A stretch of 64,000 nucleotides of DNA from a virus (IMGVR_UViG_3300048579_000388:1-64000), one strand, 5' to 3'; positions 11,608 to 59,403 are shown, numbered from the stretch's first letter. Notes: generated by a model from the sequence alone, not told the origin. Made by a program: numbers and translations.

Positions 11608-11682
11608 TGGTACGCCCAACGGGACTCGAACCCGTGTTACCGCCGTGAGAGGGCGGCGTCCTGACCGCTAGACGATGGGCGC
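11608..11682 (-). tRNA. tRNA-Glu(CTC)
   Basis: Cloverleaf, anticodon arm CCGCC-CTCTCAC-GGCGG, GGTTCGAGTCC T-arm, CCA end. Confidence 0.97.
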
Positions 11683-11692
11683 AGCGCTGACA

Positions 11693-11721
11693 ACTATAGG
11701 CAAGGCCAAAGCCCGCTGCAA
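11693..11721 (-). promoter_or_regulatory. sigma70-type tRNA promoter (similar ones at 11844-11871 and 12059-12087)
   Basis: TTGCAG-N17-TATAGT; others TTGCGT-N16-TATAAG and TTGCGG-N17-TATAAG. Confidence 0.6.
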
Positions 11722-11750
11722 GCGTCATTGTCATGTCACGATTGTCGAAA

Positions 11751-11825
11751 TGGCACGCCCTAGGGGAGTCGAACCCCTCTTCCCAGAATGAAAATCTGGT
11801 GTCCTAACCGATAGACGAAGGGCGC
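11751..11825 (-). tRNA. tRNA-Glu(TTC)
   Basis: Anticodon arm CCAGA-TTTTCAT-TCTGG, T-arm, CCA end. Confidence 0.97.
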
Positions 11826-11971
11826 ATCCGCTTCGATGGCGCCCTTATAACAGCGGATTCGATTCACGCAAGCGGCTCGCGGCAATTCCCTCATAAAAAT
11901 TTCAAGTGATAGATGACGAAATGCCCGGAAGGCATTCAATGCATGGAATAATCGTTGGAAGAGGGAAGAGT

Positions 11972-12046
11972 TGGCACGCCCTAGGGGAGTCGAACCCCTC
12001 TTCCCAGAATGAAAATCTGGTGTCCTAACCGATAGACGAAGGGCGC
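11972..12046 (-). tRNA. tRNA-Glu(TTC), identical second copy
   Basis: 75-nt exact repeat of 11751..11825. Confidence 0.97.
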
Positions 12047-15551: not shown

Positions 15552-15628
<77 letters not shown>

Positions 15629-15646
15629 TCGAAGCCTTTGAAAAGG

Positions 15647-16909
15647 CTATTCATTTTTTCCTCCATCGATAATCCGGACCTTGCCTTGTGAGTGCATTGT
15701 GGGAGCAAGCAGGCTTCTGCGGGTGTACTTTTGGAGCTTGAGGATGATCTCTTCGGTCGCGCGAGCGGGCGCGTCGAGGTAGTCGGGATCGAATTTTTCA
15801 TACCAATCCGTCGTCGACGAGCCGCTGCGAACCCGGTGGCCGAGCCATAGGGATCGCTGCTCACGCGACACGGCGACCTTGGTGCGGCGCATGTAGGACG
15901 CGATGAAGTGGCGCAGGATGTAGCAGGTCATCTCAGGCATCCAGCCGGGATAGATGATCTCGCCGGAATCGCTCACGCGTTGGTCGCGGCGGCCGATCTT
16001 GTTGATGCGCTTTTCGACGACGTCCTGATAGCCGGCGATGGGACGATCGTCCTTCCAGTGCTCCAGCCATGCGGCCAACTGCGTCGTCAGCCGGAGGACA
16101 GGCCGGCGTTTCTTGGTCTGGCGGCGGCCCTTCGGGTTGAGATCGATGAGACCGAATTCATAGTCGACCTGCTCGCTCACGCGCAGATCGAAGATGGCTT
16201 CATTGCGCGCCGCCGTGTTGAGGGCGATGATGACATAGCGGAAATCATCATCCTCCTCGATCCTGTCAATCCACTTGCCGAGCTCCTGGAAGGTCGGCAG
16301 GTATTCGCGCGGGCCGTTGATGTTGAGGCCGAGGTAGTTGGCGATCTCGGCTTCGTCGCAAAAGACCGGGACCGATTCATCGAGCAGGCGCACTTCTGTC
16401 TCCTCGTCGTCGACCATGATGATCTGCGGCAGGGCGCAATAGTTAAGCGCGGCGCGCACCGAAATCATGTAGGTCGAGATGGATTTAGGCGTGAGGCCGG
16501 CGTGGCGGGCCATATGCGACCAGACCTTCTGCTGATTGATGCGGGTGAGACGGGCGACGGTTGGCACGAGCTCGATCGTCGTCATGGCATCGTTGACCAG
16601 CTGGGCCGCGCGGCGGGCGGCCGCCATCTGCTTATAGCCTGCCGGCTCGGCCTTGTATTTCAGGTAGTGGGCGAGGGCGTCGACGAGATAGACCTGGCTC
16701 GGGGCTTTGGAGGAGATGCCTTTGCCGGCGAGAGCTTCGATGAGTTCGTCTTTTGCGTCGGGTAGATCAGTTGCAAGGAGCGCTTTACGCTTAACGCGTC
16801 GGCTTCCGTCATCATACCAATATCGGTAGTAGCCGGGCCGTCCTGGCTCTTGTCCGATCCATTGTCCCTTATATTCGAAGAGCCCCCGAGATCCTCGCTC
16901 TCGTCGCAT
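15647..16909 (-). CDS. int: Tyrosine integrase
   Basis: TAARNEAI, ILRHFIA, WLGH and WY motifs; GAGGA precedes start 16909. Confidence 0.88.
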   Translation of the reverse strand: MRRERGSRGLFEYKGQWIGQEPGRPGYYRYWYDDGSRRVKRKALLATDLPDAKDELIEALAGKGISSKAPSQVYLVDALAHYLKYKAEPAGYKQMAAARRAAQLVNDAMTTIELVPTVARLTRINQQKVWSHMARHAGLTPKSISTYMISVRAALNYCALPQIIMVDDEETEVRLLDESVPVFCDEAEIANYLGLNINGPREYLPTFQELGKWIDRIEEDDDFRYVIIALNTAARNEAIFDLRVSEQVDYEFGLIDLNPKGRRQTKKRRPVLRLTTQLAAWLEHWKDDRPIAGYQDVVEKRINKIGRRDQRVSDSGEIIYPGWMPEMTCYILRHFIASYMRRTKVAVSREQRSLWLGHRVRSGSSTTDWYEKFDPDYLDAPARATEEIILKLQKYTRRSLLAPTMHSQGKVRIIDGGKNE

Positions 16910-17106
16910 GTAAAATCCTCGTTGAAGGCGCGCTCGAGATCGCTGCGCGCGTAGACCTGCTTCCCCTGCCTGCCGCTGAACACCCGGATCATGCGGGCCT
17001 TGCGCCAGCGCGAGATGATTTGTGCGCTCAGCCATGGGTAGTCGTCAAGCGCAGCGTCATGGGTGATCAGGTCGGCAAAAGTCACGGGCTGGAACGGCTG
17101 GGTCAT
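16660..17106 (-). CDS. Excisionase-like HTH protein overlapping the integrase 5' end
   Basis: WLSAQIISRWRKARMIRVFSGRQGKQVYARSDLERAF; position upstream of int. Confidence 0.55.
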   Translation of the reverse strand: MTQPFQPVTFADLITHDAALDDYPWLSAQIISRWRKARMIRVFSGRQGKQVYARSDLERAFNEDFTCDESEDLGGSSNIRDNGSDKSQDGPATTDIGMMTEADALSVKRSLQLIYPTQKTNSSKLSPAKASPPKPRARSISSTPSPTT

Positions 17107-19330: not shown

Positions 19331-19557
19331 GATGGGTTCCTTTTCAGATAATCAGCCAGTCGAGCGGCATACCAAGCCGATTTTTCGTAGTCCTCGGCGC
19401 CGTTCTTCTTTGATGCGCGCGCCTGGTATTTGATGATGTTGAACTTCATGGCGCCGAAGAATTCGTCGCGGCTGAGCCACGCCTCGAGGACCTTGATGAC
19501 CTCGTAGGGGTTTTCTGCGCCCCCATAGTGGGATGGATGGTCGACTGCGGCGCTCAT
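19327..19557 (-). CDS. DUF3310 family protein
   Basis: VDHPSHY...NIIKY..RA.KKNG.ED..K..WY. Confidence 0.8.
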   Translation of the reverse strand: MSAAVDHPSHYGGAENPYEVIKVLEAWLSRDEFFGAMKFNIIKYQARASKKNGAEDYEKSAWYAARLADYLKRNPS

Positions 19558-20549
19558 CTTGCGAGACCCCTTTTGATGCCGAGGAAATTGAGCAGGTTTT
19601 GGCTGTCGGCCCAGCCGGCGTGACCGATCCACGCCGCAAGGAATTTCTCCAATCGGGCATGGTCTCCGGCCGCGCGATAGGCTCGGATCTTGCGCTTGGC
19701 GCGTATCACGCTGTCACGGCGCAGCAGCTTATGGTTCGGCCAGATGCGGTAGCCGACGAAATTGACGCCGCGACTGACCGGCTGGATGCTCCATTTGGAA
19801 AAGCGCAGGCCAAGCTGTTCGCGCGAGAGCATCTCGATCGAGGCGCGGACGCGACGGAGGTGCTCGGCCGATTGGCCGAGCACGACGATGTCATCCATGT
19901 AGCGATACCAGTAGTGCTCGCCGAGCGTCTGTTGCAGGTGGCGATCGACGACGCCAGCATAGATGTTGGCGAAGATCTGCGAGGCAAGGTTGCCGATCGG
20001 CAGGCCGATGCCTGATCGTGGCACGATCGTCTCGATCAATCGCTGCGTCGCTCGGCAGGAGATCTTTGCCTCGATTAGGCGCCAGAGTACACCATGTTCG
20101 ATGCAGGCAAAGTAACGCGAGAAATCCGTCTTCAGCGCATAGAGCGGCCCACGGTCACGCGAAAGGCGGCGGAGGTCGGCTTGGAGGGTGATCGCCGCTT
20201 GGTGCGTGCCCTTGCCGGGGCGGCAGGCATAGGAGCGGGGCAGCAGTGTCGCCTCGAAGATAGGGCCGATGATGGCGCAAAGCGCCTGTTGCGCCACGCG
20301 ATCCTCGAATGGAAGCGCGGAGATCAGTCGTTCCTTTGGGTCGAAGATCCGGAACTCCTGCGGCGTACCTGGGCGATAGGCGCCATCGCGCATGGCCTGC
20401 GCGAGGTCGGCGAGGTTGAGCGCAGAGAATTCCTTGAATTCCAGATAGCCAGGCGTCAGCCGTTTGCCGCGCGACGTGAGGCGCAATGCCTCACGCATGT
20501 TCGCATCGTCGGTGATGCGACCGATGAGGTTGCGATATTTCTTGGACAT
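19554..20549 (-). CDS. DGR reverse transcriptase (Brt-like, 331 aa)
   Basis: KER.I.ALPFEDRVAQ, SYACRPGKGTH, LKTDFSRYF, GLPIGNLASQIFAN, RYMDDIV, FVGYRI; next to avd and TR. Confidence 0.95.
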   Translation of the reverse strand: MSKKYRNLIGRITDDANMREALRLTSRGKRLTPGYLEFKEFSALNLADLAQAMRDGAYRPGTPQEFRIFDPKERLISALPFEDRVAQQALCAIIGPIFEATLLPRSYACRPGKGTHQAAITLQADLRRLSRDRGPLYALKTDFSRYFACIEHGVLWRLIEAKISCRATQRLIETIVPRSGIGLPIGNLASQIFANIYAGVVDRHLQQTLGEHYWYRYMDDIVVLGQSAEHLRRVRASIEMLSREQLGLRFSKWSIQPVSRGVNFVGYRIWPNHKLLRRDSVIRAKRKIRAYRAAGDHARLEKFLAAWIGHAGWADSQNLLNFLGIKRGLAR

Positions 20550-20777
20550 GATCCGCGGATGAAAATGAATTTGATGAAAATGCCGGTCGCGGGTTTCGAC
20601 GGCTCTGCCGCTACTCCCCGCTGTACCGGACCTTGAAGTGTATTCGCCTAGGCCGGACGGCTGGGCCGACCACCCCCGTGTTTTGCCAGAGGCAAAATCA
20701 CGATGTTGCCAGCCAGAGGCCGCAACGGTGGAAGATGACCGGCGTGACCGTGACCAGCGCCGCGTCGGAAAAGGGTC
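20550..20777 (-). ncRNA. DGR RNA 3' spacer (structured)
   Basis: Lies between TR and RT; hairpin TTTTGCC-TCT-GGCAAAA at 20681-20697. Confidence 0.55.
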
Positions 20778-20898
20778 GTCGCAGGCGCCGCGCGCCCCGA
20801 TGTTCTCGTTCGAGTTCTCGGGCCAGTAGTCCAAGTTCGCGTAGCGGGAGCCGGCGTTGTCGCCGTTGATCCACGAGCCGCCGAAGATGGAAGGACGC
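20778..20898 (-). repeat. DGR template repeat (TR)
   Basis: 121 bp, 22 adenines, six AAC codons; matches both VRs almost only outside adenines. Confidence 0.95.
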
Positions 20899-20905
20899 AT
20901 CGACA

Positions 20906-21283
20906 TCATTGCCCCGACCGCCCGCTTTGCTTCGCCGTCTTGACCCATTGACCCAGCATCGCACCCGTCTCAGCGAGCGGCCGAAAAACCGTGGCGAGCT
21001 GATGAGGGGTGATGATCCTGATGTCTGGGCGAGCGGCGAAGCGAAGAGAAAAACGCAGCGTCGCGAGATGCGCATCGGCCTCATAGAGGCGCGACGGCTG
21101 TTTCGATTTCGCTGCCTGGTAGAGCAGGCGTACTTGTTCCAGCAACAACCCAATGAGATGGTCGCGCAGCGTGCCGTGTTTGCGCGGTCCAGCCTGGATT
21201 TTCGGGTAGATGTAGTTCAAGGCAACCTCGTATTTTTCGATGATGGCCAGATCGCGCGCGTCGATGTTTTCGTCACGGGTCAT
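20906..21283 (-). CDS. avd: DGR accessory variability determinant
   Basis: 125 aa helical, between target and TR; LYEADAHLATLRFSLRFA...ETGAMLGQWVK. Confidence 0.88.
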   Translation of the reverse strand: MTRDENIDARDLAIIEKYEVALNYIYPKIQAGPRKHGTLRDHLIGLLLEQVRLLYQAAKSKQPSRLYEADAHLATLRFSLRFAARPDIRIITPHQLATVFRPLAETGAMLGQWVKTAKQSGRSGQ

Positions 21284-21312
21284 CTGGAAATTTCCGATTT
21301 CGGGAGGGTCAG

Positions 21313-21332
21313 GCCTGCGCTTCCGCGCAGGC
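21313..21332 (-). promoter_or_regulatory. DGR target-recognition hairpin after VR1
   Basis: GCCTGCGC-GGAA-GCGCAGGC at the stop codon. Confidence 0.85.
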
Positions 21333-22258
21333 TAAGCAGGGCTCAGGTGGCCGCAGGCGCCGCGCGCCCCGATGTATCCGTGCGAGTACCCGGGCCAGTA
21401 GTCCAAGCTCGCGGAGCGGGAGCCGGCGTAGTCGCCGTTGACCCACGAGCCGCCGAAGATGGAAGGACGCGGGATATCCGGGTGTCCATCCGTGCCCCAC
21501 TGCCACACGGTTCCCGTGGCATCGAACAGCCCGTGCTTGCTGATGAAGCGGTGTCCTTCATCGCTCAGCGTGCCGGTGATTTTGGGATCGCGATCGCGCG
21601 AGCATCGCTCTTCCACGCCATAGGCGGCGGCGAAGAATTCTTCGGCAAACAGAAGGCGCTTGCCATGGGCCGCGTAGATTTCGACCGCCGTAGCGTAGTC
21701 AAGCTTCTTTGTCTTTTCGGATCCGTCAGGATGATCCGGCAAATCCCGACCGTCGGCGATAACGGCGCCACAGCGGCTGGTGCCGTGCGCCAGATGGTCG
21801 GTGCCGAGCAGATAGATATCAACCCAGAAGCGGAGGCCATGCATTTCGACGAAGGTCATGCCGCGCGGGTCTTTGCAGGCCGGGCGGAAGTCGAGATCCC
21901 ATAGCGAGAATGGGTTAATCGCCGGAACAGCGTCGCCGCCTGCTTTGCCAAGGGCATTGCCGCCCGGTGCGAAATGGAAGCCGGCGAAGGCGCCGCTGGC
22001 GACAACACCTGGATGTGCCGGCGCCGCGAAGGGCGCGCCCGACACATCGACATCGATGGCGTAATCGCAGCCAGGCTTCAGCTCGTCGGTTTCGATCGCT
22101 GTATCACTGTCGAAGGCGACCTTGCGGCCGTCGATCTCGATCACGGTTCCGCCTCGGATGGCAATGTCGGCGCGGCCTGCGGTGACGAGAATGGATTTCG
22201 AGGCCTCATGGCGGGCGATCCGGATCGGACGCGAAAGGGTTTCTGCAACTGCAGTCAT
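21332..22258 (-). CDS. DGR target 1, Mtd-like C-type lectin-fold protein
   Basis: GFHFAPGG, INPFSLWDLDFRP, DPRGMT, WVDIYLLG, FGGSW...IGARGAC; VR at C-terminus. Confidence 0.9.
   Translation of the reverse strand: MTAVAETLSRPIRIARHEASKSILVTAGRADIAIRGGTVIEIDGRKVAFDSDTAIETDELKPGCDYAIDVDVSGAPFAAPAHPGVVASGAFAGFHFAPGGNALGKAGGDAVPAINPFSLWDLDFRPACKDPRGMTFVEMHGLRFWVDIYLLGTDHLAHGTSRCGAVIADGRDLPDHPDGSEKTKKLDYATAVEIYAAHGKRLLFAEEFFAAAYGVEERCSRDRDPKITGTLSDEGHRFISKHGLFDATGTVWQWGTDGHPDIPRPSIFGGSWVNGDYAGSRSASLDYWPGYSHGYIGARGACGHLSPA
21350..21470 (-). repeat. Variable repeat VR1
   Basis: 11 mismatches to TR: 10 at TR adenines, 1 G-to-A. Confidence 0.95.
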
Positions 22259-22289
22259 GGGTCTATTCCTTGATTGTGGGGAGGGGCAG

Positions 22290-22309
22290 GACTGCGCTTT
22301 CGCGCAGTC
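22290..22309 (-). promoter_or_regulatory. DGR target-recognition hairpin after VR2
   Basis: GACTGCGC-GAAA-GCGCAGTC at the stop codon. Confidence 0.85.
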
Positions 22310-23517
22310 TAAACAGGACGCAGGTGGTCGCAGGCGCCGCGCGCCCCGATGGTCTCGTCCGAGTGCCCGGGCCAGGAGTCCAAGTCCGCGTAGCGGGAGC
22401 CGGCGCCGGCGCCGTCGAGCCACGAGCCGCCGAAGATGGAAGGACGCGAGAAATCCGGATCGCCATCGGTGCCCCAGATGTGCATGTTGCCGGTGGCCTG
22501 CATCAGGCCGAAACGGCTGGTGCGCGGGGCGTCCAGGCAGGTCTGTTCCGGTTCGCGGGGCGCGGCGGACTTCTCGGTCACGCCATAGGCGGCGATGCGG
22601 AACTCGTCGTATGTCGGCAAGCGTTTGCCGTGCTCGGCCATGATTGCCTTTGCCGTTTCGTAATCGAGCTTATCGAGCGACCAGCCATCGGCGATCGTTG
22701 CGCCGCGATGGCTCGTGCCTGATGTCTTGTGGTTGGTGCCGAGCAGGTAGATGTCGAACCAGCAACGGATGCCATCGGCCTCGACGAGCGTCATACCGCG
22801 CGGATCGGGGCAGGATGGGCGGAAGTCGAGATCCCAGAGGGAGAAGGGATTGATGGCGGGCTCACTGTCGCCGCCGGAGCGAGCTTGCGCATGACCACCG
22901 GGCGCGAAGTGGAAACCCGCGAAGAAGCTTGCGTTCAGCGGGTTGGCGCCGACAGGCGTTGCGATCGGCTCGCCTTTGGCGTCGAGCGTGATGGCGTAGT
23001 CGCGGCCCGCCGCCAGATCGGCGATCGGGACCGTGACAGGATTGGGGAACGCGTGCTCCGTCTCGTCGATGCGAATGACCGTGCCGGCGCGGATGGCCAG
23101 CTCAGTCTTGCCGTGGGCTGAGAGAATGGGGAGCGAAACATCCGGGCGCGTGATGAGGGTTGGCGCTCCAGCGCTTCTCGGCGCGGCCGTGACCAGTCGC
23201 GTGACCAATCCAACCTTCTCGCTCGTTGTATTGAACTTTGCCGGCACCGCTTCGCCGAACAGGTCAATGCCTTCATCCATAGCGATAAGGTCAGCGCAGA
23301 TGACGACGTCGGCCAGTTCTTCTGCCAGTTGCTGGCGTGACGCCCGTGATCCAGGCAGGCCGATGCGCTCGCGGTCAATCTTCTTGATGACGTTGCAGGC
23401 TTCGCCGACTTCTCCGGCGAGCTCATTGCCGCGATAAGCGAGTGTGATCTTGTTGTCCTTATCCCATTCCTTCTGGCGCGCGACATTAGCCGAACGCAGA
23501 TCATTGAAGCTGCTCAT
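22309..23517 (-). CDS. DGR target 2: MazG-like NTP pyrophosphohydrolase fused to Mtd-like lectin-fold domain
   Basis: aa 1-108 ELAGEVGE...EELADV...KFN; remainder paralogous to target 1, with VR2. Confidence 0.88.
   Translation of the reverse strand: MSSFNDLRSANVARQKEWDKDNKITLAYRGNELAGEVGEACNVIKKIDRERIGLPGSRASRQQLAEELADVVICADLIAMDEGIDLFGEAVPAKFNTTSEKVGLVTRLVTAAPRSAGAPTLITRPDVSLPILSAHGKTELAIRAGTVIRIDETEHAFPNPVTVPIADLAAGRDYAITLDAKGEPIATPVGANPLNASFFAGFHFAPGGHAQARSGGDSEPAINPFSLWDLDFRPSCPDPRGMTLVEADGIRCWFDIYLLGTNHKTSGTSHRGATIADGWSLDKLDYETAKAIMAEHGKRLPTYDEFRIAAYGVTEKSAAPREPEQTCLDAPRTSRFGLMQATGNMHIWGTDGDPDFSRPSIFGGSWLDGAGAGSRYADLDSWPGHSDETIGARGACDHLRPV
22327..22447 (-). repeat. Variable repeat VR2
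   Basis: 11 mismatches to TR, all at TR adenines. Confidence 0.95.
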
Positions 23518-24656
23518 AGTGTAATCCCCTGGATTTTCATGGGTACGAGGAGGGTGAAATCGTCGGGCTTGCCGACGGGGCGGAGAATGCTGTTGTCGGT
23601 CGCCCGATTGAGCAGAAGTTCGACCTGGTCACCGGCATGATGGGCCAGCGCCTCACTGAGATATTTGCCGTTGAAGGCGATGGTGATTTCGAGATCGGCC
23701 TCGGCCGGGATCTCGTCCTCGCCTTCGCCGGAGCGGAAATCCTTGGCGGCGAGCGTGACGGTGCCGGCCTCGAAGGCGAAGGTCATGCCCTTCGATGCAT
23801 CCGGCGTGGCGATGAGGACGCGCTCGACCGCGCTCGCCATCGCCGCGCGCGAGAACTGGGCCGAATGGCTGTTCTGCCGCGCTGGCCGGGTGAGCGCGCC
23901 CCAGTCAATGAACTGGGCGTCGATCAGCTTCGAGATCAGGGTGATGGTGCCCGCGGTGACCACCATGCGCTCCTCGGCAAAGCCAAGCGTGATATCGTCG
24001 AAATCGCCGGCGAGCTTGAGGATCCGACCGACGGTGTCTGACGGCACCAATGTGGGCGGGATGGATGCGAATGGATCCTCGGGGTCGAAGGCCATGGCAG
24101 GGATCAGGCGCCGCTCGATGCGATATCGATCGGTGGAGACGAGGTTGAGGCCATCCTCGGCGCCCTGCATGAAGACGCCGCAGATATAGAGGACGGTCTG
24201 GTCCTTCGATGTGGCGTATTCCACGGCCGAAAGCGCTTCGGCGAGGATGCCGGAATCAAGCCTGACCTTGTGAGTGAGATTGCCCGCGTCGAGCTTGGGA
24301 TAGTCCGACGCGGGCAGGACCGGCACCTTCAGGCGGGAACGGCCGGATTTGAGATTGATATGCTCGAGGCGGCCGTCTTCGATGATCGGTTCGACCGTGA
24401 TGGCGGTGTCGGGGGCTCGCTTGACGAACTCCACCATCGGCTGGATGGGGCAGGTGAAGGGCGTGAAGCCCGATGCTGCGGTTGCTTCGAAGGTGCAGGT
24501 CAGCTCGATATCCATGCTGCTGCCGCGCGCGACGAAGGTTTCGTTCTCACGGGTTATGAGAACATTCTGCAGAATGGGCGTCGTGTGCTTCGGCCGGATG
24601 GCCGGCTGCACGGCCGCGAGCGCCGCGGCGAGGGCGGCCTTGTCAGCTTTGAGCAT
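23514..24656 (-). CDS. dnaN: DNA polymerase III beta sliding clamp (phage copy)
   Basis: TPILQNVLI, VSTDRYRI, LISKLIDAQFIDW, IAFNGKYL; 380 aa. Confidence 0.9.
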   Translation of the reverse strand: MLKADKAALAAALAAVQPAIRPKHTTPILQNVLITRENETFVARGSSMDIELTCTFEATAASGFTPFTCPIQPMVEFVKRAPDTAITVEPIIEDGRLEHINLKSGRSRLKVPVLPASDYPKLDAGNLTHKVRLDSGILAEALSAVEYATSKDQTVLYICGVFMQGAEDGLNLVSTDRYRIERRLIPAMAFDPEDPFASIPPTLVPSDTVGRILKLAGDFDDITLGFAEERMVVTAGTITLISKLIDAQFIDWGALTRPARQNSHSAQFSRAAMASAVERVLIATPDASKGMTFAFEAGTVTLAAKDFRSGEGEDEIPAEADLEITIAFNGKYLSEALAHHAGDQVELLLNRATDNSILRPVGKPDDFTLLVPMKIQGITL

Positions 24657-24849
24657 GGAGAGCTTCCTTTGCACGGCCGCTATTGATTCGCCGGACGAGG
24701 CGCAACTCGTCCTGCGGCGGACGAAGACCTTCGCCCTTGTAGCGGTCAAAGAGGAGAGTTAGGGCCTCCTCGCAATCGCCTTCGGCGATGGTGCGATAGA
24801 GATTTTCGACCCAGACATGGAAGGGTTCATTGCCAGGATGCATGGTCAT
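24643..24849 (-). CDS. Small hypothetical protein
   Basis: 68 aa between ssb and dnaN. Confidence 0.5.
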   Translation of the reverse strand: MTMHPGNEPFHVWVENLYRTIAEGDCEEALTLLFDRYKGEGLRPPQDELRLVRRINSGRAKEALHAQS

Positions 24850-28422: not shown

Positions 28423-28728
28423 ATGATGGGCTTGGCGGATCCCGTGTTGAATGATGCTAACGTCATCTCGATTGAGTGCGGCGATTGCGGACGCAGCAGA
28501 TGGAGGAAGCCGGCTCAGCTTCTTTCGAGAAAAATTTCGCTGTCAACGCCGCTGAGCGAAGTCGTCTCCAAATTCTACTGCCTTCCCTGTAGAGAAGAGG
28601 GTTCAGACGGCAAGAATGTCACGGTGGACGTTATGTTTTGTGTCGATTTCGACCGGGTGACTGCTGAGCAGGCAGTACTTAGAACCCAAGTAGTTCTTTC
28701 GTCGGGATTACACGCCAAAGCGTCTTAA
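28423..28728 (+). CDS. Small Zn-finger protein, probably SOS-inducible
   Basis: CGDC...CLPC; follows SOS box; convergent with cI. Confidence 0.65.
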   Translation: MMGLADPVLNDANVISIECGDCGRSRWRKPAQLLSRKISLSTPLSEVVSKFYCLPCREEGSDGKNVTVDVMFCVDFDRVTAEQAVLRTQVVLSSGLHAKAS

Positions 28729-29374
28729 CGCCGTAGCGATCAAAAATCAGTTCCCGTTCTGGGTTGAACTGTTTGACAACAATATCCTTCGACGTACGGC
28801 GTAGCAGTCGCTTGACGAATGCTTTCCCGGCCTCGCCCTCGTTTTCAGGGAACATTTCAATTACCACATCATCCCCGGGAACAGGTTCGCGTCCCCCGCA
28901 GACAATTACCTCGCCAGCGGAGAATCGGGGTTCCATGCTGTCGCTCAATAGATTGAGCGCGAAGACGTTACGAACGTTGGCAATGCCAGGTGGCCTCCGA
29001 ATGTAGCTTGCCACCTCGCCGTTAAAGGAAAAATCTCCTTCGTCCCCGCCGTAGGCAACGCCGCGCACCTCGAGATCCATCGGGCCTAGCGCATTCGCTG
29101 GGGTGAGATCTGTCACGATTTCTGCGTCACCGAGATCGTCATCTCCCAAATAGATAAGTTCACCGCGGGTCAAGGCGGTCGGATCAACGCGAAGCTTTTC
29201 GGCGGTCCTTACCAAATTCTCAGTCGAGGGAAGGTTTGTGCCGATTTCCCACTGTCCCACGGCGGCGGTTTTAACGCCCACGTGTTCGGCAATATTGCGC
29301 TGAACGAGGCCGCGCCTTTTTCGCGCGGTCCGGATAGCTATGCCGATCTGCTGTGCCAGCGTGCCTTTAGTCAT
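28679..29374 (-). CDS. cI: CI/LexA-family repressor (HTH plus S24 peptidase)
   Basis: N-terminal HTH; SDSMEP and FVKRL Ser-Lys dyad motifs. Confidence 0.92.
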   Translation of the reverse strand: MTKGTLAQQIGIAIRTARKRRGLVQRNIAEHVGVKTAAVGQWEIGTNLPSTENLVRTAEKLRVDPTALTRGELIYLGDDDLGDAEIVTDLTPANALGPMDLEVRGVAYGGDEGDFSFNGEVASYIRRPPGIANVRNVFALNLLSDSMEPRFSAGEVIVCGGREPVPGDDVVIEMFPENEGEAGKAFVKRLLRRTSKDIVVKQFNPERELIFDRYGVKTLWRVIPTKELLGF

Positions 29375-29455
29375 GCTTATAATTGGGCTTGGCCCAACCT
29401 TCCGGTCTACATAATTATCGCTTGCACGAATTTGTAATTTATGCTTATAAGCGGC
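29372..29455. promoter_or_regulatory. OR switch region
   Basis: AT-rich gap with TGCTTATAA twice, including palindrome GCTTATAAGC. Confidence 0.6.
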
Positions 29456-29456
29456 C

Positions 29457-29675
29457 ATGACTGATCAACTTGCCATGTCTGAACTGTACGAGAAGGCTGG
29501 TAGCGCGTCCGAATTGGCGCGCCGGCTCGGGATATCGCCATCTGCTGTTCTGCAGTGGGATAAAGTGCCGGCCAACCGTGTCTTAGCGGTTGAGAAGATC
29601 ACTGGGATCTTACGACATCTTCAGCGCCCTGACATCTTTGGCGATGCGCCCGTTGTGCCGGAGGCCGCCGAATGA
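29457..29675 (+). CDS. cro: Cro/YdaS-like regulator
   Basis: ELARRLGISPSAVLQWDKVPANRVLAVE...RPDIFG; divergent from cI. Confidence 0.85.
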   Translation: MTDQLAMSELYEKAGSASELARRLGISPSAVLQWDKVPANRVLAVEKITGILRHLQRPDIFGDAPVVPEAAE

Positions 29676-49587: not shown

Positions 49588-50394
49588 ATGTCCATCGTGC
49601 GGCAGTTGACCCAGATTTGCATGGTGCGAGCCTTCCGAGGGCAGACCTTGGCCGGCAATGCGGTGCTGGACAGCAATATTACCGGGCTATCGGCCTTCGA
49701 CTACAAGGACGAGCAGCCGGTAATTGCCTGTTCGATCGAGGAGGTTGAACTCGACGACAAGTATGGCCGGGGCCTTTTCGGTCGCGCCGCCGAGACGAAA
49801 ATCTATATTCAGACGGCAGTTGCAACGAAGGGAAGCTATATCGTCGTCACCGGAGAGGGCACCGAGCGGGTCGAGGAATTCAAAGAGATCGGTTCGACGG
49901 ATGCCGCGCGGGAGGCGACCCTCAACATTCTCGATCGGCAATGGAAACAGGCGCTAACCGATCCGGCCAATGTCTGGGGCGACCGATTCCGGCAACTGGT
50001 CCCGCATGTTGGACGCGTCAAGGATTTGCGGATAACCGACCCCGAGGGCGGCCGGAAATATGCCGCCCGTGTTTATGAGATCAGCGGCACCATGATCGCT
50101 GAACCAGATTTCGGCGCAGATCTGCCAGAAGATATCGACGCGATCATGACTGCCGTGGGTGCCATCCCTGATTATGCCGATCTGATAGCGATCTGGCGTG
50201 ATCTCTTCAGCAAGGCCGCGAGCGACGATCCGATTGCGCGGTCGCAGGCCTCGGCGGCACTTTCGTCAACGGCCTTTGCCGCACTGGGCCTGCATCGGCT
50301 CGATCCAGAGGGTGACGACTTCACCACGGGCGTGTTTGCGAATGACGGCCGGGACGATATCGAGGTCGTGGCCGAGGACGAGGATCAGCCGTGA
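49588..50394 (+). CDS. Neck/tail completion protein
   Basis: 268 aa between joining and baseplate genes. Confidence 0.5.
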   Translation: MSIVRQLTQICMVRAFRGQTLAGNAVLDSNITGLSAFDYKDEQPVIACSIEEVELDDKYGRGLFGRAAETKIYIQTAVATKGSYIVVTGEGTERVEEFKEIGSTDAAREATLNILDRQWKQALTDPANVWGDRFRQLVPHVGRVKDLRITDPEGGRKYAARVYEISGTMIAEPDFGADLPEDIDAIMTAVGAIPDYADLIAIWRDLFSKAASDDPIARSQASAALSSTAFAALGLHRLDPEGDDFTTGVFANDGRDDIEVVAEDEDQP

Positions 50395-50972
50395 GCAGGG
50401 ATAGTCTCGGGGAGGATCTCGGCAAGATGGTCGCCGACATGCTCGGGCCGATTATCCGAGACATTCATGTGCTGAAGAATGCTTTCTCAAGCATGGCGCT
50501 CGAAGGTTCGATCGAGGAGGTCGATGCCGAGCAAGGGTATCGCGTCAAGCTTGGCGAGGGGCAGGACGGGCAGCCGTTCCTGTCGGGGTGGATACCGCAT
50601 CCCGAGACGGCCAAGAGCTCAGTGCCTCTGAAAAAAGGGATGCGTGTGGGGCTGTTCTGCCCCGGTGGCGATCTTCGCCAGGCGATGATCGTGCGTGCTG
50701 GCTATTCTGACGAGCATCCCAGTCCCAATCAGGACATGAACGCGAATGTGTTCGAAGATGCCGGGGTCAAGCTGACGGTCGCGGACAACAAACTTACGTC
50801 GGTGATCGGCGGCGCCACCTGGGAGCAGAGTGGTGACGGAGTCAACCTCACCGTCGGTGGCACGACTTTCTCCTTTACAGGCGCCGGGTACACCCAGACT
50901 GGCGGAATGCAGATCCATGATGGGAAAGATGTGGGTGCGACGCATACGAATGAAGGCCTGAAGGTGGATTGA
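50391..50972 (+). CDS. Baseplate spike protein (P2 gpV-like)
   Basis: RVKLG...SGWIP...G..V.LFCPGGD; Gly-rich beta C-terminus. Confidence 0.85.
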   Translation: MSRDSLGEDLGKMVADMLGPIIRDIHVLKNAFSSMALEGSIEEVDAEQGYRVKLGEGQDGQPFLSGWIPHPETAKSSVPLKKGMRVGLFCPGGDLRQAMIVRAGYSDEHPSPNQDMNANVFEDAGVKLTVADNKLTSVIGGATWEQSGDGVNLTVGGTTFSFTGAGYTQTGGMQIHDGKDVGATHTNEGLKVD

Positions 50973-50973
50973 G

Positions 50974-51369
50974 ATGGCCGATTTCGACAGGAATACCGGC
51001 GCGGTGATCGATAATTTCCAGTCGGCGCTGCAAGGGGTGGAAGTCACCTTCATTACGCGGCTCGGCGACACGATCATGCTGCGCGAATTCGGCGCTGGGC
51101 TGCTCGATCTCCTCGGCAGGCTGATGGTGCCGCGATTGATGATGGCGTTTCAGCAGCTGATCGTTACGGCGATCGACCTTTGGGAGCCGCGGTTTCAGGT
51201 GCGGCAGATCCTGTTCGAAGGCTCGGTCGACCAGCTGCGGCTCGGCAGTGCCAAGTTCGGCATCGAGGTCGATTATCGGCCACGCGGCCATCTCGGCGAC
51301 TTCACCGTCGAACGGATGGTGAATTTCACACTGACATTCGACAGCAGGGGCATTCGGGCGGCGGCATGA
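50974..51369 (+). CDS. Baseplate protein (gpW/gp25-like)
   Basis: TRLGDTIMLREFGA...AIDLWEPRF. Confidence 0.85.
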   Translation: MADFDRNTGAVIDNFQSALQGVEVTFITRLGDTIMLREFGAGLLDLLGRLMVPRLMMAFQQLIVTAIDLWEPRFQVRQILFEGSVDQLRLGSAKFGIEVDYRPRGHLGDFTVERMVNFTLTFDSRGIRAAA

Positions 51370-52295
51370 CAACGATCATCAATGTTGCCGACCTCGCGCC
51401 GCCAGAGGCGATCGAGGCGCTTAGCCATGCCGCGATCATGGAGCGCCAGAAGACGCTTTTCCAGTCCTACTGGGAGAGCGTGCGGGCGAGCAATCCAGAT
51501 CTCAATCTGCCCGCCTACGACGTTGACATGCTGGCGCATAGCCCACCTGTCGTCATCGGTCGGGCGGAGAGCTATCGCGAGCTGTTGCTGCGTGCTCGGG
51601 TCAACGATGCGCTGCGCGCCGTGCTGCCCGCCTTTGCGCGCGGTACCGATCTCGATCAGGTCGTCGCACGAGCCAATGTCCAGCGGCTTGCAACGGCTTT
51701 CGATGAGGACGGCAACGCGACGGCATGGGAGAGCGACGCCAAGCTTCTCGATCGCTATCTTGCCGCTTTCGCGCGGCCGGCTGCCGGATCGGAAGATGGC
51801 TATATCTATGCCGCCGCCACCGCGTGGCCGCAACGCCATGATATCAAGGTCTATGGCTATGAAGCGCCTGAGCTCGGTTTCGAACCTGGCGATGTTGGCG
51901 TTTACTTGCTCGCCGCTGACGGCGGTTCGGTTTCCGATGAGGCGATGGCCTCCGTTGTGCGAGCGCTCAACCCCAAGACAGCGCGGCCGCGTACCGATGT
52001 TGTGGAGGTGCGTCGCGCGACCGTGGGCACCTGGTCCCTGGCGGCCAAGCTGATTATCCGCCGAGGGGCATCGCCCGAAGCCGTCGTCGCTGCTCGCCGT
52101 ACGGCAGTGCAGGCCTTCGCCGACGCGCGCCATCACATTGGCGGCCTTGTCACGGCCGTCGGTGCGGTTTCTGCGCTTTGGGACCCCAATGTCATCAATG
52201 TCGAGGTCACCGCGCCGCTGGCCGACATTCCATCGGCGCGGGATAAGGCGCCGTTTCTGACGTCGATCAACCTGACCTATGAGGTGCAGCTGTGA
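51366..52295 (+). CDS. Baseplate J-like protein
   Basis: RELLLRARVNDA...FARGTDLD...AGSEDGY...RPRTDVV. Confidence 0.88.
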   Translation: MTTIINVADLAPPEAIEALSHAAIMERQKTLFQSYWESVRASNPDLNLPAYDVDMLAHSPPVVIGRAESYRELLLRARVNDALRAVLPAFARGTDLDQVVARANVQRLATAFDEDGNATAWESDAKLLDRYLAAFARPAAGSEDGYIYAAATAWPQRHDIKVYGYEAPELGFEPGDVGVYLLAADGGSVSDEAMASVVRALNPKTARPRTDVVEVRRATVGTWSLAAKLIIRRGASPEAVVAARRTAVQAFADARHHIGGLVTAVGAVSALWDPNVINVEVTAPLADIPSARDKAPFLTSINLTYEVQL

Positions 52296-53569
52296 CCTTT
52301 CAGTCGCTTCTGCCATCCTCGTCCGGCATCTTCGAGAAAGCGATCGAGACGGTCTATGGCACCGCGCTCGATCAGCTTGAGCCGGAAGTGATCAAGACCT
52401 TCTGGGATCCTGATCTCTGCCCGGCCGAATATCTGTCTATCCTTGCGCATGCGCTTTCGGTCGATCTCTGGGACGATGATTGGGATGTGCTCAAGAAGCG
52501 CTCGATCATCAAGCGGTGGGTGCAGCTCGAATGGTCGAAGGGCACCTATGCCGGTTATAGGGATTTCATCGAGATCGCTGGCGGGCGGTTGGTCGAGGAT
52601 CTCGCCGCGCCCCAGGGCTTCTATCTTGCCGAGGATCTGACCCAAGCGCAGTGGCAGGCCTGGATCGACCAGATGCCGCGGGTCCGGGTGACCTTCGCGC
52701 AAGGCCAGGGCGAATGGGTGCCGCCGTCTGGCCTCTATCTTGACCATTGGTTTCTGGACGAGGACTTCGAGGAGTTCGACGACGGCGAGGCGCTTTACGG
52801 ACGCCAGGCCTATCTCCGGGAGAATGCCGGCGGCGAGGATCAGAAGCTCTTGCTGTCGCGGGTCTATGAGACGCGCGAGGAGCGACCCGGCTATGCGACC
52901 GAGCGCGTGGTCATTCCCGGGCTTGCCGGCGCGGCCTTCATTCTCGACGAAAGCTTCCTCGAGGACGATGCGACTGGCTTTCTCGATGGCGATGAGCGGG
53001 CGCCGCAGACCTATAGCTATGCCCTCAACCGGAGTTTCATCTATCAGGAAAGCGCCCTCGAGCTAACCGCGGTGCCGATCGGCTATCGGCCGCGCGACGT
53101 GCGCTACATCAGAGAGAGCCTGATCGGCGACGCGCTGGCTGATGCTCACCTCGACGATTGGTATCTCGATGATGATCGCTTTCTGACCGAGGACGAAGGC
53201 GGAATGATGCTCGCCGACGTGCTGCATCTCCTCAATCCGGATATCGCCGCACCCCTGGTCGACGGCATTTCCTTCCTCGACGTCAGCCGGCTCGACATGG
53301 ATCGCTTCACGCTCGAGCTGATGATCGATGCAACGACCATCCTGCCCTGGGGGCATTTCGTGCTCGATGTCAGCTTCCTGGATGAGGACTTCCTCGCCGA
53401 CGAAGATCTCCGCCATCTGGACAAGATCATGCGCGCGATCGTGGCCGCCAAGGCCAAGCGCGACAAGGTTCTTGTCACTTTCGAAACCACCAAACCGCTC
53501 ACGCTCGGCGACGCGCCGCGGCTCAATTCCGGCATGAAACTCGGCGCGCGCGTGCCGGCAACACTCTAA
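52292..53569 (+). CDS. Tail protein I (P2 gpI-like) with acidic extension
   Basis: CPAEYL..LAHALSVDLW...KGT; repeated LD..FLD motifs. Confidence 0.85.
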   Translation: MTFQSLLPSSSGIFEKAIETVYGTALDQLEPEVIKTFWDPDLCPAEYLSILAHALSVDLWDDDWDVLKKRSIIKRWVQLEWSKGTYAGYRDFIEIAGGRLVEDLAAPQGFYLAEDLTQAQWQAWIDQMPRVRVTFAQGQGEWVPPSGLYLDHWFLDEDFEEFDDGEALYGRQAYLRENAGGEDQKLLLSRVYETREERPGYATERVVIPGLAGAAFILDESFLEDDATGFLDGDERAPQTYSYALNRSFIYQESALELTAVPIGYRPRDVRYIRESLIGDALADAHLDDWYLDDDRFLTEDEGGMMLADVLHLLNPDIAAPLVDGISFLDVSRLDMDRFTLELMIDATTILPWGHFVLDVSFLDEDFLADEDLRHLDKIMRAIVAAKAKRDKVLVTFETTKPLTLGDAPRLNSGMKLGARVPATL

Positions 53570-53587
53570 CGAAGATCTGGGGCTCCC

Positions 53588-55957
53588 ATGGAACGTACAG
53601 TCAATTTCCAGTCGAAACAGAAGGTCACCCGCAGCGATCTGGACAATATGGGTGACTTCGCCCGGGAGTCCATGGATCACGTCGTGATGGACGGCATCAC
53701 GGATCTGCAGGGCTTCGTCGGCTTCTCTGTCGTGCGCACCGGTGTCGGCGAAGTGACCGTCGCGGCGGGTCGGTACTATGAGGCCGGCAAGGTGTTCGTA
53801 GACGACGCCGAGACGCGGCTCCCGCTCAACCTGCTCAACTACCTGGCGATCAACCAGAAGCGGATCGTGACGATCGCCGTCAACGGCACGCTTGTCGACA
53901 ATGACCAGCAGCCGCGCACCTTCCTGCTCGATGCGCAGCTGCGCACCACGGAAGCGCGCCAGATTTCGGTCGAGAGCCTGCGGCACGCCGAAATCACACC
54001 GGTACCTGGCGCCGAGAACGCAGATCCGTCGCCTCCGAACCTCAACGCCAATCTGCTTGCCATTGCCTATGTGACGATGTCGACCACCGATGTCATCGAC
54101 ATCACAATGGTCGCGGCTAACAGGCTGCCCTCTGTCAAGTCGCTCAACACTCGGCTCACGCTGGTCGAGAAGCGCCTCGACTTGGCCGGCTCGCGCATCG
54201 ACACGCTCGGCACGGATATTTCCGGCCTGGCGGCGCTCTTGAAGACGAGGGCGCCGATGTCCTTCGTCACCAACCTCGCGCTCGACTACGCACTGACGAA
54301 GAAGCTGGCCGAACTGCCGTCCGACTACACGGCTTGGGAGGCCGACAATTATCTCAACGAGGACTATTCCGATACCGCGTTTTCCGGCTATTCGGCCTAT
54401 GTCCGCGACGGTCTTCATTTTGGCAATGCCGGCCTTGCGCGCTCGGCGCTCGGGCTGCTCAACTCGACCGATCCGCGTATTACCGTCTCCGACAACATGG
54501 TCGGAGCGCGCCACATCAATGTCGCTCGTCTGTCGATCACGGGCAAAGACGCGGAAATCGCGCTGGCGAACTACAATGTTTCCACGACGAGCGTCGAAAA
54601 GCTGACGCGCACTCGCACCGAATGGCAGAATATCCATTATCAGTCGGTGCAACCGGACGGTCTCTATGACGGCAGCTGGACGCTCGACTATGCCAACAAT
54701 GCCGATGGCACCGGCTATGCCGACTATACCCGCACCAATCCCCAGACCGGGGAGAAAGAGCAGTGGAGCTATCAGGTTCTGAGCTACTGGCAATCGGCGC
54801 TCGGCGAGGGCTATGCGACTTACGCGTATGGCATCACCAAGCAGCTCGGCAGCAACTGGACCTATCGCGTCCTCAAGGCGATCGAGGAGCCTTACTGGGA
54901 CACGGTCAAGACGACGGAAACCGTCAATGGCTTCACGCTGGGCCAGACCTTCCTGAATGCTCAGCAGGGTGCGCTGACCAAGGTCGACCTGTTCTTCACC
55001 AAGAAGGCGGCGATCGGAGACGTCCACCTCTACCTGACAGAGCTGGATACCGCTGGCCGGCCCAACATGTCGCGCGTGATCCAGAAGGTCAGCAAAGCGC
55101 CGGGCGACATAGTGGCCGACACCGCCGGCGAAACACCCACTACCTTCGTCTTCAGTGCAGACGCCATGGTCAAGGGCCAGCGCTACGGCCTGGTCGCGAT
55201 CAGCCAAGGCGCGCATTTCCTTGCCGTGGTCAGCGGCAACAAGTACGGCCAGGGTCAGCTGTTTCAGAAAAACAACGGCGAATGGCAGGCTGGTTCCAGC
55301 GATCTCGACCTCGCCATGGTGCTGTGGTTCGCGGGCTATGATCAGACCCGTGTCGAGGTACAGCTCAACCCCGTCGAGCTCTCGGGCGGCATCGGCCGCA
55401 TCGAGATCAACTGCGACACCTATATTCCGGAAGGCACCCGCATCGAGTGGGAGGGTTTCATCGGCGGCGTGTGGAAGTCGCTGACCGTCGTCAATGAGAC
55501 GCTGATCTCACCGCTCGCGACCCGGCCGAATATCATCCAGCTGCGGGCCATTCTGATCGGCACGACGGACAGCATGCCCATGTTCGGCATCGGTGCGCTG
55601 CGGTCATCGGTAACGGTCAGTCGCAACAGCACGTCGCTCACGCATATCTCGAAGATCATCACCCTACCGAGCGCCTGCGACACGGTCGAGGTGGAGCTGG
55701 CGGCCAAGCACTGGAACGCGGGCCACCACACGCTGACCGCCAAGATCCTGGTCGGCGCCGGCTATACCACCGTCGAGAACTCCGACAGCACGATCGATCT
55801 CGAAGTGCCGGTCACCCAGGACGTGCTGAAGCGGCGCAAGCTGGTGTTCAACCTGGCCTCGGCTGTGACGTCTTTCCGCATTCGGATCGAGGCCACGACG
55901 TCCGACGCTGCCGACCAGCTCGCCATTACCAGCCGCAAGTCCGTGGCCTTCGCTTAA
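53588..55957 (+). CDS. Large baseplate/tail structural protein
   Basis: 789 aa after gpI-like gene. Confidence 0.65.
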   Translation: MERTVNFQSKQKVTRSDLDNMGDFARESMDHVVMDGITDLQGFVGFSVVRTGVGEVTVAAGRYYEAGKVFVDDAETRLPLNLLNYLAINQKRIVTIAVNGTLVDNDQQPRTFLLDAQLRTTEARQISVESLRHAEITPVPGAENADPSPPNLNANLLAIAYVTMSTTDVIDITMVAANRLPSVKSLNTRLTLVEKRLDLAGSRIDTLGTDISGLAALLKTRAPMSFVTNLALDYALTKKLAELPSDYTAWEADNYLNEDYSDTAFSGYSAYVRDGLHFGNAGLARSALGLLNSTDPRITVSDNMVGARHINVARLSITGKDAEIALANYNVSTTSVEKLTRTRTEWQNIHYQSVQPDGLYDGSWTLDYANNADGTGYADYTRTNPQTGEKEQWSYQVLSYWQSALGEGYATYAYGITKQLGSNWTYRVLKAIEEPYWDTVKTTETVNGFTLGQTFLNAQQGALTKVDLFFTKKAAIGDVHLYLTELDTAGRPNMSRVIQKVSKAPGDIVADTAGETPTTFVFSADAMVKGQRYGLVAISQGAHFLAVVSGNKYGQGQLFQKNNGEWQAGSSDLDLAMVLWFAGYDQTRVEVQLNPVELSGGIGRIEINCDTYIPEGTRIEWEGFIGGVWKSLTVVNETLISPLATRPNIIQLRAILIGTTDSMPMFGIGALRSSVTVSRNSTSLTHISKIITLPSACDTVEVELAAKHWNAGHHTLTAKILVGAGYTTVENSDSTIDLEVPVTQDVLKRRKLVFNLASAVTSFRIRIEATTSDAADQLAITSRKSVAFA

Positions 55958-55968
55958 GGAGCATTTCA

Positions 55969-56163
55969 ATGGCCAAGAAGCCGACAACCAAAGCTGCGCC
56001 CGATATCAATCCGGAGGCGCAGTATGACGTCACGCTGAAGCGGCCGATCAAGCTCGGTCGCTCCGGCACCTATGCACGGCCGGGCCTTCCCCTGACGCTC
56101 AGTGGCGCCCGTCTCCTCGAACACTTGGAAGACGTTGATGGCTACACAGAAGTCACTGGCTGA
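55969..56163 (+). CDS. Small tail-associated protein
   Basis: 64 aa with strong RBS. Confidence 0.55.
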   Translation: MAKKPTTKAAPDINPEAQYDVTLKRPIKLGRSGTYARPGLPLTLSGARLLEHLEDVDGYTEVTG

Positions 56164-58180: not shown

Positions 58181-59403
58181 CCATAGCAACACGTCATCGC
58201 GGAGGCTTGATGGGCATGGAGCATGCCCGCAAGCTCGACAAGATCAAGGCGGATATTCTGCTCAGCGATCCCGCCGCCTATGGCGATATTGCGCCGACGC
58301 TGGATCTCGACTTCACCAATATCTATGGCGCGCCGTTTCCGGGGAATTTTAGCCGCCCCACCATTGGCGGCTACCGGTTGAATGCCAAGGGCGTGATGGT
58401 CCCGACCGTGGCCAATGAGCCGAATATTGATTTCGGGACCGATGGCAAGCCGCTCGGGACCGGGTTCTACGGCGCCTATACGAACCTGTTGACGTGGTCC
58501 GAAGACTTCACCAATGCAGCTTGGACGAAGGGGCCAAATGTAACGGTCACCCCAAACAACGTGGCAGCCCCTGACGGGAACCTAACGGCTGATCGCATTG
58601 CCGCCAGCAGCGGCGACAATGCTATGTCTCAGAGCGCATTGGTCACCGGCAACCAGTACTACACCTTTAGTATTTGGCTGAGATCAGACAGTTCAATCGG
58701 CCTGACCTTGCTCATTTTCGACGGAACGGGGGGCGGAAACACCACCCTTAATGTCACCGCGACGACCGACTGGCAGCAGTTCAGCCTGACGAGGCTCGTG
58801 CCGGCGGGGCAAACTGGTGTTGTTTGTTACATCGGCGGCGCGGGATCATTTACGAACGAGACTATTTACGCCTGGGGTGCTCAGCTCACCGCCACCGCTT
58901 TCCCGGTTCCCTATGTGCCGACCACATCGGCAACGGTGGCTCGGAATGCGGATGTCTTCTTACTGTCCGGCACTGATGTAACCGATGCCGCGAACTCGCT
59001 TGAAGGCACGTTCTATGCGGAGGCGTATGCGCCGCGCAGCCTCTCCGGCTATCCAGCTCTGCTTCAGCTCGATGACGGCGGGTTCAACAATCGCAGCGTC
59101 ATTTTCTACAACAGTGCGGGGCAAGCAATCGGAGCAGGAACCGACGTCGCAGCCGTCAACACTGCCACCTTTACTTCGCAGACAATCAGCCGCGGCTCTT
59201 TCTTCCGGTTGGCTTACACGTACAAGGCCAACGCCTTCGTCTTTGTTGTGAACGGTGCTCCAATCCTGACGGACACCGCTGGTGCAGTGCCCAGCGGCAT
59301 GAACCGCATCCGGATCGGGGATACCTGGGATGAGCACATCCGCCGAGTCATCTACTGGCCCAAGGCGTTCTCCGCGCTCGACATGAAAAGGATCACGGCA
59401 TGA
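58177..59403 (+). CDS. Tail fiber/spike protein 2, paralog of the fiber 1 C-terminal half
   Basis: PTLDLDFTN...[14 protein letters not shown]...IRRVIYWP. Confidence 0.8.

Follow-up and report, generated by a model that had tools for sequence, protein, structure and literature searches.

Whether a retroelement that appears able to rewrite two genes from one template is still at work, and what the rewritten proteins would be used for, are the questions raised by a minus-strand cassette at 19554-23517 of the viral DNA stretch IMGVR_UViG_3300048579_000388:1-64000 (64,000 nt in full, called the window below, and part of a 74,453-nt provirus record). The cassette, ordered target2-target1-avd-TR-RT, consists of two target genes, an avd gene, a template repeat (TR) and the gene for a reverse transcriptase (RT). 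With a probability of roughly 0.88, we read it as a canonical diversity-generating retroelement (DGR) of the BPP-1 type that resides in an intact, roughly 57-kb prophage at a tRNA-Pro gene and rewrites two tandem paralogous targets. Two-target cassettes are the norm in its clade of Hyphomicrobiales prophages, and the element joins a large class that is already known. Its unusual features are the position in a repressor-to-integrase operon, targets that lack the N-terminal domain of the BPP-1 target protein Mtd, and an in-frame fusion to a MazG-like domain.

Repeats and machinery of the cassette

A direct-repeat search returned three in-register copies (20774-20898, 21346-21470 and 22323-22447), whose 121-nt cores, the TR and the two variable repeats (VRs) VR1 and VR2, align without gaps on the minus strand (Table 1). 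VR1 departs from the TR at 11 sites, namely ten TR adenines and a G-to-A change at position 94 (G94->A), and VR2 likewise at 11 sites, all 11 of them TR adenines. Mismatches thus fall on TR adenines in 21/22 cases (P = 5e-15, given 22 adenines among 121 positions), and only one substitution, A->G at position 81, is identical in both VRs. The change seen in VR1 at TR position 120 is located past the GC-rich core of the putative initiation of mutagenic homing (IMH) site described below, and may represent a difference between the IMH and its TR counterpart (IMH*) rather than a mutagenised site. Read in the frame of targets 1 and 2, all 22 adenines fall on the first or second base of a codon (six AAC, three ATC, three GAC, two TAC and two GAG codons), so that stop codons cannot arise by adenine mutagenesis; the number of possible variants per target is 4^22 = 1.76e13 at the DNA level and 15^6 x 4^10 = 1.19e13 at the protein level. 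A preliminary description of the locus, drawn up from the sequence alone, had anticipated much of this. Realignment reproduced its repeat coordinates and gapless alignment exactly, a recount gave the same ten adenine changes plus one G-to-A in VR1 and 11 adenine changes in VR2, the single common substitution agrees with its remark that the two VRs carry largely different substitutions, the codon tally upheld the stop-free placement of the adenines, and its figure of about 1.8e13 DNA variants per target is correct. Further, remote targets were considered and rejected, as the TR matches within the 74-kb record are VR1 and VR2 only.

The protein and RNA parts of a DGR are all present and intact. 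The RT matches Pfam RVT_1 (3.8e-17) and PHROG 1423 'Reverse transcriptase' (4.6e-112), shows 50.6% identity with Brt of BPP-1 across 328 aa, and carries IGNLASQ and YMDD, the forms taken here by the (I/L/V)GxxxSQ and YxDD motifs that mark the DGR clade. A 464-aa open reading frame at 19554-20948 extends through the TR by chance; the true start is most likely the ATG at 20546, which gives 330 aa as compared with 328 aa in Brt. Avd matches Pfam bAvd (1.6e-23) and PHROG 3206 'Avd protein of DGR' (1.1e-24), and is 44% identical to BPP-1 Bbp7. The spacer between TR and RT matches the Rfam family RF03022 (Phage_DGR) over the full model, 1-127, scoring 63.9 bits (E 1e-9) where the gathering score is 50. 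Gene calls and family matches also confirm the order target2-target1-avd-TR-RT on the minus strand, as had been proposed beforehand, and with RT, Avd, TR/VR pairs, DGR RNA, IMH and hairpins each detected, the earlier designation as a complete two-target DGR holds.

The signals expected for homing are found at both VRs. A 15-nt run of G and C only, near the 3' ends, is common to TR, VR1 and VR2 (its core in the TR, the IMH*-like one, at 20784-20798), and past this run the TR reads GACGACC as against GRCCACC in the VRs, which corresponds to the distinction between IMH* and IMH; VR homology stops a few bases on, at a position with G in the TR and C in the VRs. The same G/C difference recurs in 5/5 related cassettes. 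As defined in the part of the survey by Wu et al. (2018; PMC5758913) drawn on here, an IMH begins in a GC-rich stretch at the 3' end of the VR and has a non-identical IMH* at the TR, and the pair in this cassette conforms to that definition. DNA folding predicts a hairpin or cruciform 17 nt past each VR and none 3' of the TR. Both VR hairpins conform to the published rule of a 7-10 bp stem, a 4-nt GRNA loop and a distance of 4-34 bp (PMC3240598), and they are kept in five related cassettes, with compensatory changes in the stems. In a promoter and terminator scan of 15.5-30.5 kb, sites were no more frequent than in shuffled sequence, and an internal promoter or terminator is therefore not assignable to the cassette.

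By analogy with the BPP-1 literature, from which the biochemical steps are taken, a complex of RT and Avd would bind a transcript holding the TR and the structured spacer, and reverse transcription would place random nucleotides opposite template adenines. The resulting cDNA would then replace the final ~120 nt of either of the two tandem paralogous genes, with a GC-rich IMH and a GRNA-loop hairpin of its own presumably letting each target be recognised independently of the other. Operating in this way, the cassette could generate about 1e13 stop-free protein variants per target.

Natural variation and the target proteins

The preliminary description had named adenine-specific heterogeneity of the VRs as the property that sets a live element apart from a relic, and metagenome contigs contain just such heterogeneity. 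Over 19400-23600 we compared contigs from four runs belonging to four separate studies (X1-X4; two from activated sludge, one from an unspecified metagenome and one from freshwater). Outside the VRs (about 3,960 nt) 3 positions vary, and the contigs are otherwise identical to the window; within the VRs, 242 nt in all, the listed variable positions number 27 (odds ratio 166, P = 3e-31), and 25 of the 27 are TR adenine sites. Both VRs vary between these otherwise identical natural populations: VR1 has 20 variable positions in the metagenome contigs, 18 of them at TR adenines, and contig X1 shows 12 differences over 1206 bases, the seven listed ones all being VR2 TR adenine sites. The TR is unaltered in each contig that spans it (X1, X3 and X4), a single run yielded two different VR1 contigs, that is, two alleles, and the metagenome assemblies break at the VR edges. 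When the VRs of the window and the metagenome alleles are taken together, each of the 22 adenines is substituted at least once. As backgrounds that are otherwise identical carry VR alleles differing at adenine sites, while the TR stays constant, the element looks active or recently active, and this pattern gives strong indirect support to the view that both targets are being rewritten in nature now, or were so very recently.

Both targets resemble Mtd. Target 1, whose putative start is the ATG at 22258 with AAGGA upstream, matches PHROG 11262 (5e-74, profile positions 78-390 of 393) and is 37% identical to Mtd residues 47-378. Target 2 matches the same family on aa 116-399 (8.6e-72). Pfam mtd_2nd exceeds its curated cut-off for target 1 and, at 23.4 bits against 24.6, narrowly misses it for target 2. 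The AlphaFold model of the latter protein has a mean pLDDT of 79.5, exceeding 90 in the Mtd-like part, and resembles the five Mtd crystal structures 1YU0-1YU4 (E about 2e-27, TM-score 0.62-0.67). Going by sequence and model, the varied residues are predicted to sit in the C-terminal part of the Mtd-type C-type lectin fold. The Mtd N-terminal domain (residues 1 to about 46) is missing from both targets: BLASTP alignments begin at Mtd residues 47 and 55, the PHROG 11262 alignments at 78 and 69 of 393, and a tblastn search of whole Mtd against the prophage gave nothing beyond the two targets. The proteins thus belong to the Mtd tail-fibre-tip family in part, with its fold and VR and without its N-terminal domain.

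Ahead of its Mtd-like part, target 2 carries a MazG-like domain (about aa 1-111, 23185-23517), from which the frame passes via a short linker into the Mtd-like part. This domain shows 65% identity to a 121-aa protein that Rhizobium phage RHph_X2_25 encodes as a separate gene and that is annotated as MazG-like (QWY83229.1), in an alignment that extends over all of that protein up to its last residue and includes the acidic ExxGE...EELAD motifs. It matches PHROG 229 (MazG-like; 1e-6, aa 23-86) and stays below the curated cut-offs of Pfam MazG/MazG-like (18.9 vs 22 bits), and its model is helical and of low confidence. An exact look-up found no record of the target 2 protein, and with target 2 as query no match spanning MazG and Mtd occurred in the best 150 hits among 50%-identity cluster representatives. 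In three proteins (P0250, P0254 and P0256) MazG matches reach slightly into the linker, and these may be contig-end fragments of the same fusion.

Two explanations would undo parts of this picture, and both can be judged by the metagenome contigs. The window by itself cannot separate old changes from new ones, and its cassette might accordingly be an inactive relic that looks complete, has lost retrohoming and preserves VR/TR differences of old date. Some observations do weigh against an element at work. Two differences lie outside the adenines, namely G94->A in VR1 of the window and T8->G, a T>G change on the coding strand at TR position 8 (21463 in the window) that is common to two samples; the other samples hold the G of the TR at position 94, so the A of the window is private. 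The VR1 contig of one sample has a 1-nt frameshifting deletion at 21376, which would reflect faulty assembly of a heterogeneous region or else a dead allele (the contigs bearing this deletion or the change at 21463 come from runs X2, X1 and X4). The contigs also record fixed alleles and not ongoing events, and what they strictly establish is a recently active element. We nevertheless consider a relic very unlikely, in view of near-identical phage backgrounds from four studies whose alleles of VR1 and VR2 differ almost exclusively at TR adenine sites, of two alleles in one sample next to an invariant TR, and of DGR parts that are all intact. Even less credible is an assembly or sequencing error, such as a missed stop codon or a frameshift, as the source of the MazG fusion. 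Stand-alone MazG homologues do stop exactly where target 2 carries on, as such an error would have it, but the junction (about 23150-23230) is covered by contigs of four independent runs with zero substitutions or indels, which argues that the fusion is no assembly error, and in-frame fusions to two other enzyme families exist in other assemblies.

Relatives and the role of the targets

The targets have more than 1,300 homologues, most of 287-310 aa and often named 'phage major tropism determinant', in Rhizobium, Agrobacterium, Shinella, Brucella/Ochrobactrum and Mesorhizobium. Short Mtd-like homologues with 50-64% identity have the same avd-TR-RT arrangement downstream and usually come in two tandem copies; the window belongs to their clade. 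Among species-representative genomes, a scan by target-protein alignment picked out 21 whose RT reaches 70% identity or more and whose cassettes hold two full-length targets in 14 genomes, three in one and one in six; a peptide-pattern query of species-representative genomes for the RT gave no confirmed relative. The order repressor-ssb-dnaN-targets-avd-RT-integrase is kept in three related loci (L007, L011 and L013), and in another (L012) dnaN lies downstream of the RT gene. Three tandem Mtd-like targets precede avd-TR-RT at L013:7001-10256, L015:4157-6924 and L034:4058-6864. A PF04447-like gene and the one target that can be recognised lie about 2.8 kb apart in metagenome-assembled genomes (MAGs) of Paracoccus (L018:2819-6000) and Notoacmeibacter (L019:3417-6000), and the stretch between them may hold a divergent target. 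On one Nitrobacter MAG contig (L036 and L041, ~13 kb apart) and on one Xanthobacteraceae contig (L049 and L076), two Mtd-like loci lie in opposite orientations, with avd-RT adjoining one of each pair only; such pairs may be non-adjacent targets or belong to two prophages.

Counting the MazG-like domain of the window, the first target is found fused to three enzyme families. The other two are a PF04447 dATP/dGTP pyrophosphohydrolase, joined in frame in L011 (6001-7194), and a nucleoside deoxyribosyltransferase, in L006 (4934-6262), L013 (7001-8338) and P0076. The MazG fusion itself was seen in no other protein cluster, the first target of relatives being unfused or joined to the other enzymes. 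A further pyrophosphohydrolase candidate, L016, was rejected, its parts lying in different frames and the enzyme being encoded by a separate upstream gene. Long open frames upstream of the relatives' targets are mostly spurious in this GC-rich DNA and were discarded: three long extensions tested among the 21 close relatives, an unbiased set, matched no known family, and the upstream open frames of L027, L030, L024, L044 and L049 had no PHROG match. With these extensions lacking a family and the L016 gene being separate, the fusions look like a sporadic result of gene adjacency, although they may have a functional role. Literature on DGRs together with MazG, or with Agrobacterium prophages, gave in its titles and abstracts no sign of this clade or of enzyme-fused targets.

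The most likely role of both targets is receptor binding by the virion, and they could serve to broaden or switch host adsorption, which we regard as uncertain. Several observations sit badly with this role. The genes lie in an operon running from repressor, ssb and dnaN to thyX and integrase, about 30 kb from the tail genes; residues 1-46 of Mtd have no counterpart in either target; and no homologues of BPP-1 Bbp9 or Bbp1-4 were found in the prophage. Position and missing domain alike misfit a classical tail-fibre tip. The DGR could therefore be active on Mtd-like proteins that do not bind receptors as part of the virion, and that would act instead as diversified binding modules of an early or lysogenic operon, inside the cell or at its surface, and of which the upstream one would deliver or tether an enzyme that hydrolyses nucleotides. 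We regard this as a serious, though less probable, alternative. It would account for a cassette that relatives keep between dnaN/ssb and integrase with a CI-like repressor on the same strand, for a dnaN stop that overlaps the start of target 2, for the truncation, and for a first target repeatedly joined to enzymes in the window, L011, L006, L013 and P0076; VR2 of the MazG-fused target, too, varies in nature. On the other side, distant family members with 36-41% identity (L052, L055, L059, L062 and P0165) have genuine tail-fibre N-termini, among solved structures that of Mtd, a tail-fibre tip protein, comes closest, and the fusions have the appearance of adjacency accidents, as set out above. 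More far-reaching, and in our judgement distinctly improbable, is the idea that the Mtd-like targets of Hyphomicrobiales have left the virion to become free hypervariable modules, the first of them repeatedly joined to nucleotide-metabolising enzymes, so that what the DGR diversifies would be not adsorption but the targeting of an enzyme inside the cell, or else a function in anti-defence or exclusion; that the enzyme fusions are themselves functional, the stronger form of the non-virion proposal, seems to us about equally improbable.

As a DGR the element adds little, given its textbook BPP-1-type machinery and hundreds of close relatives in public Rhizobiaceae genomes. Its value is that of a well-documented natural case in which two targets of one cassette are independently diversified, with every template adenine mutated somewhere in environmental populations, mainly of activated sludge and freshwater, and this recommends it for work on how a single RT can serve two targets. 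Its setting poses a testable question as to the function of phage DGR targets: if the targets are indeed not tail-fibre tips, the assumption that an Mtd-type target means tropism switching needs to be qualified.

Prophage context and comparison with known systems

Table 1. Positions in the window of the DGR components and of neighbouring prophage features.
Feature	Position	Strand	Description
attL	15582-15630	+	3' half of tRNA-Pro
Integrase	15647-17035	-	Adjoins attL; PHROG search
DGR reverse transcriptase	19554-20546	-	330 aa; putative start at ATG 20546; RVT_1, PHROG 1423
Structured TR-RT spacer of DGR RNA	20582-20714	-	Rfam RF03022 Phage_DGR
Template repeat (TR)	20778-20898	-	22 adenines; repeat search and alignment
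Avd	20906-21283	-	125 aa; Pfam bAvd, PHROG 3206
Predicted hairpin/cruciform after VR1	21313-21332	-	8-bp GC-rich stem, GGAA loop; DNA fold
Target 1	21332-22258	-	308 aa; Mtd-like beta-sandwich and C-type lectin; Pfam mtd_2nd, PHROG 11262
VR1	21350-21470	-	Final 46 codons of target 1; IMH GC core 21356-21370
Predicted hairpin/cruciform after VR2	22290-22309	-	8-bp stem, GAAA loop; DNA fold
Target 2	22309-23517	-	402 aa; MazG-like domain, short linker, Mtd-like beta-sandwich and C-type lectin
VR2	22327-22447	-	Final 46 codons of target 2; IMH GC core 22333-22347
DnaN-like sliding clamp	23514-24749	-	Pfam DNA_pol3_beta x3
CI-like HTH/S24 repressor	28679-29458	-	Family matches

The 49-nt repeat that forms attL recurs beyond the window as attR (record 72319-72367, L010:12319-12367), and the two repeats appear to bound a prophage of about 56.7 kb that looks intact. 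On the minus strand the order is CI-like helix-turn-helix (HTH)/S24 repressor, unknown genes, single-stranded DNA-binding protein (SSB), DnaN-like clamp, target 2, target 1, avd, TR, RT, ThyX and integrase. The stop codon of dnaN and the ATG of target 2 overlap (ATGA), and the cassette is thereby linked to the operon upstream of it. The plus-strand arm holds replication genes, terminase, portal, protease, capsid and a P2-like contractile-tail module, whose genes for baseplate, fibre, sheath, tube and tape measure lie in P2-like order at 50391-60404 and L010:1780-8808, pointing to a myovirus-type prophage as carrier of the DGR and not to a podovirus like BPP-1. The bacterium that carries the prophage probably belongs to the Rhizobiaceae/Hyphomicrobiales. 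In its flanking DNA, just beyond the prophage, three tRNA-Glu genes stand in a row on the minus strand (11608-12046; one with a CTC and two with TTC anticodons).

In the part of the survey by Wu et al. (2018) drawn on here, two-target DGRs make up about 13% of 372 elements and targets of one DGR often differ in mutation pattern, while Mtd-type targets with CLec1 VRs account for about 3% and resemble Mtd in size, except for one that has a tail-collar extension; Mtd-type targets that are truncated or fused to an enzyme, such as those described here, are not mentioned in that part (PMC5758913). The MazG of RHph_X2_25 stands alone, whereas in the present prophage its stop codon is absent and the frame runs on into a DGR target.

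The closest comparison is with BPP-1 (Rauchvirus BPP1), which has the same gene order and strand logic (mtd-avd-TR-brt), and to which the targets are 34-37% identical (to Mtd), in addition to the RT and Avd identities given above. BPP-1 likewise has an RF03022 DGR RNA, a GC-rich IMH and, following the VR, a hairpin of 8 bp with a GRNA loop, its TR has 23 adenines in AAC-type codons as compared with 22 here, and its cassette, too, is transcribed toward the att end of the prophage. Unlike BPP-1, which has a single target, the present cassette has two in tandem, both beginning at about residue 47 of Mtd and one bearing a MazG-like domain. It lies among ssb, dnaN and thyX, whereas that of BPP-1 lies downstream of the tail genes, and its carrier has a P2-like contractile tail with sheath, tape measure and baseplate. 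Kinship with BPP-1 beyond the cassette was rejected, the two having no other gene in common. The match to the BPP-1 layout put forward in the preliminary description accordingly stands for the cassette and does not extend to its setting, that is, a repressor-to-integrase operon, a contractile tail, and targets that are truncated and in one case fused to MazG.

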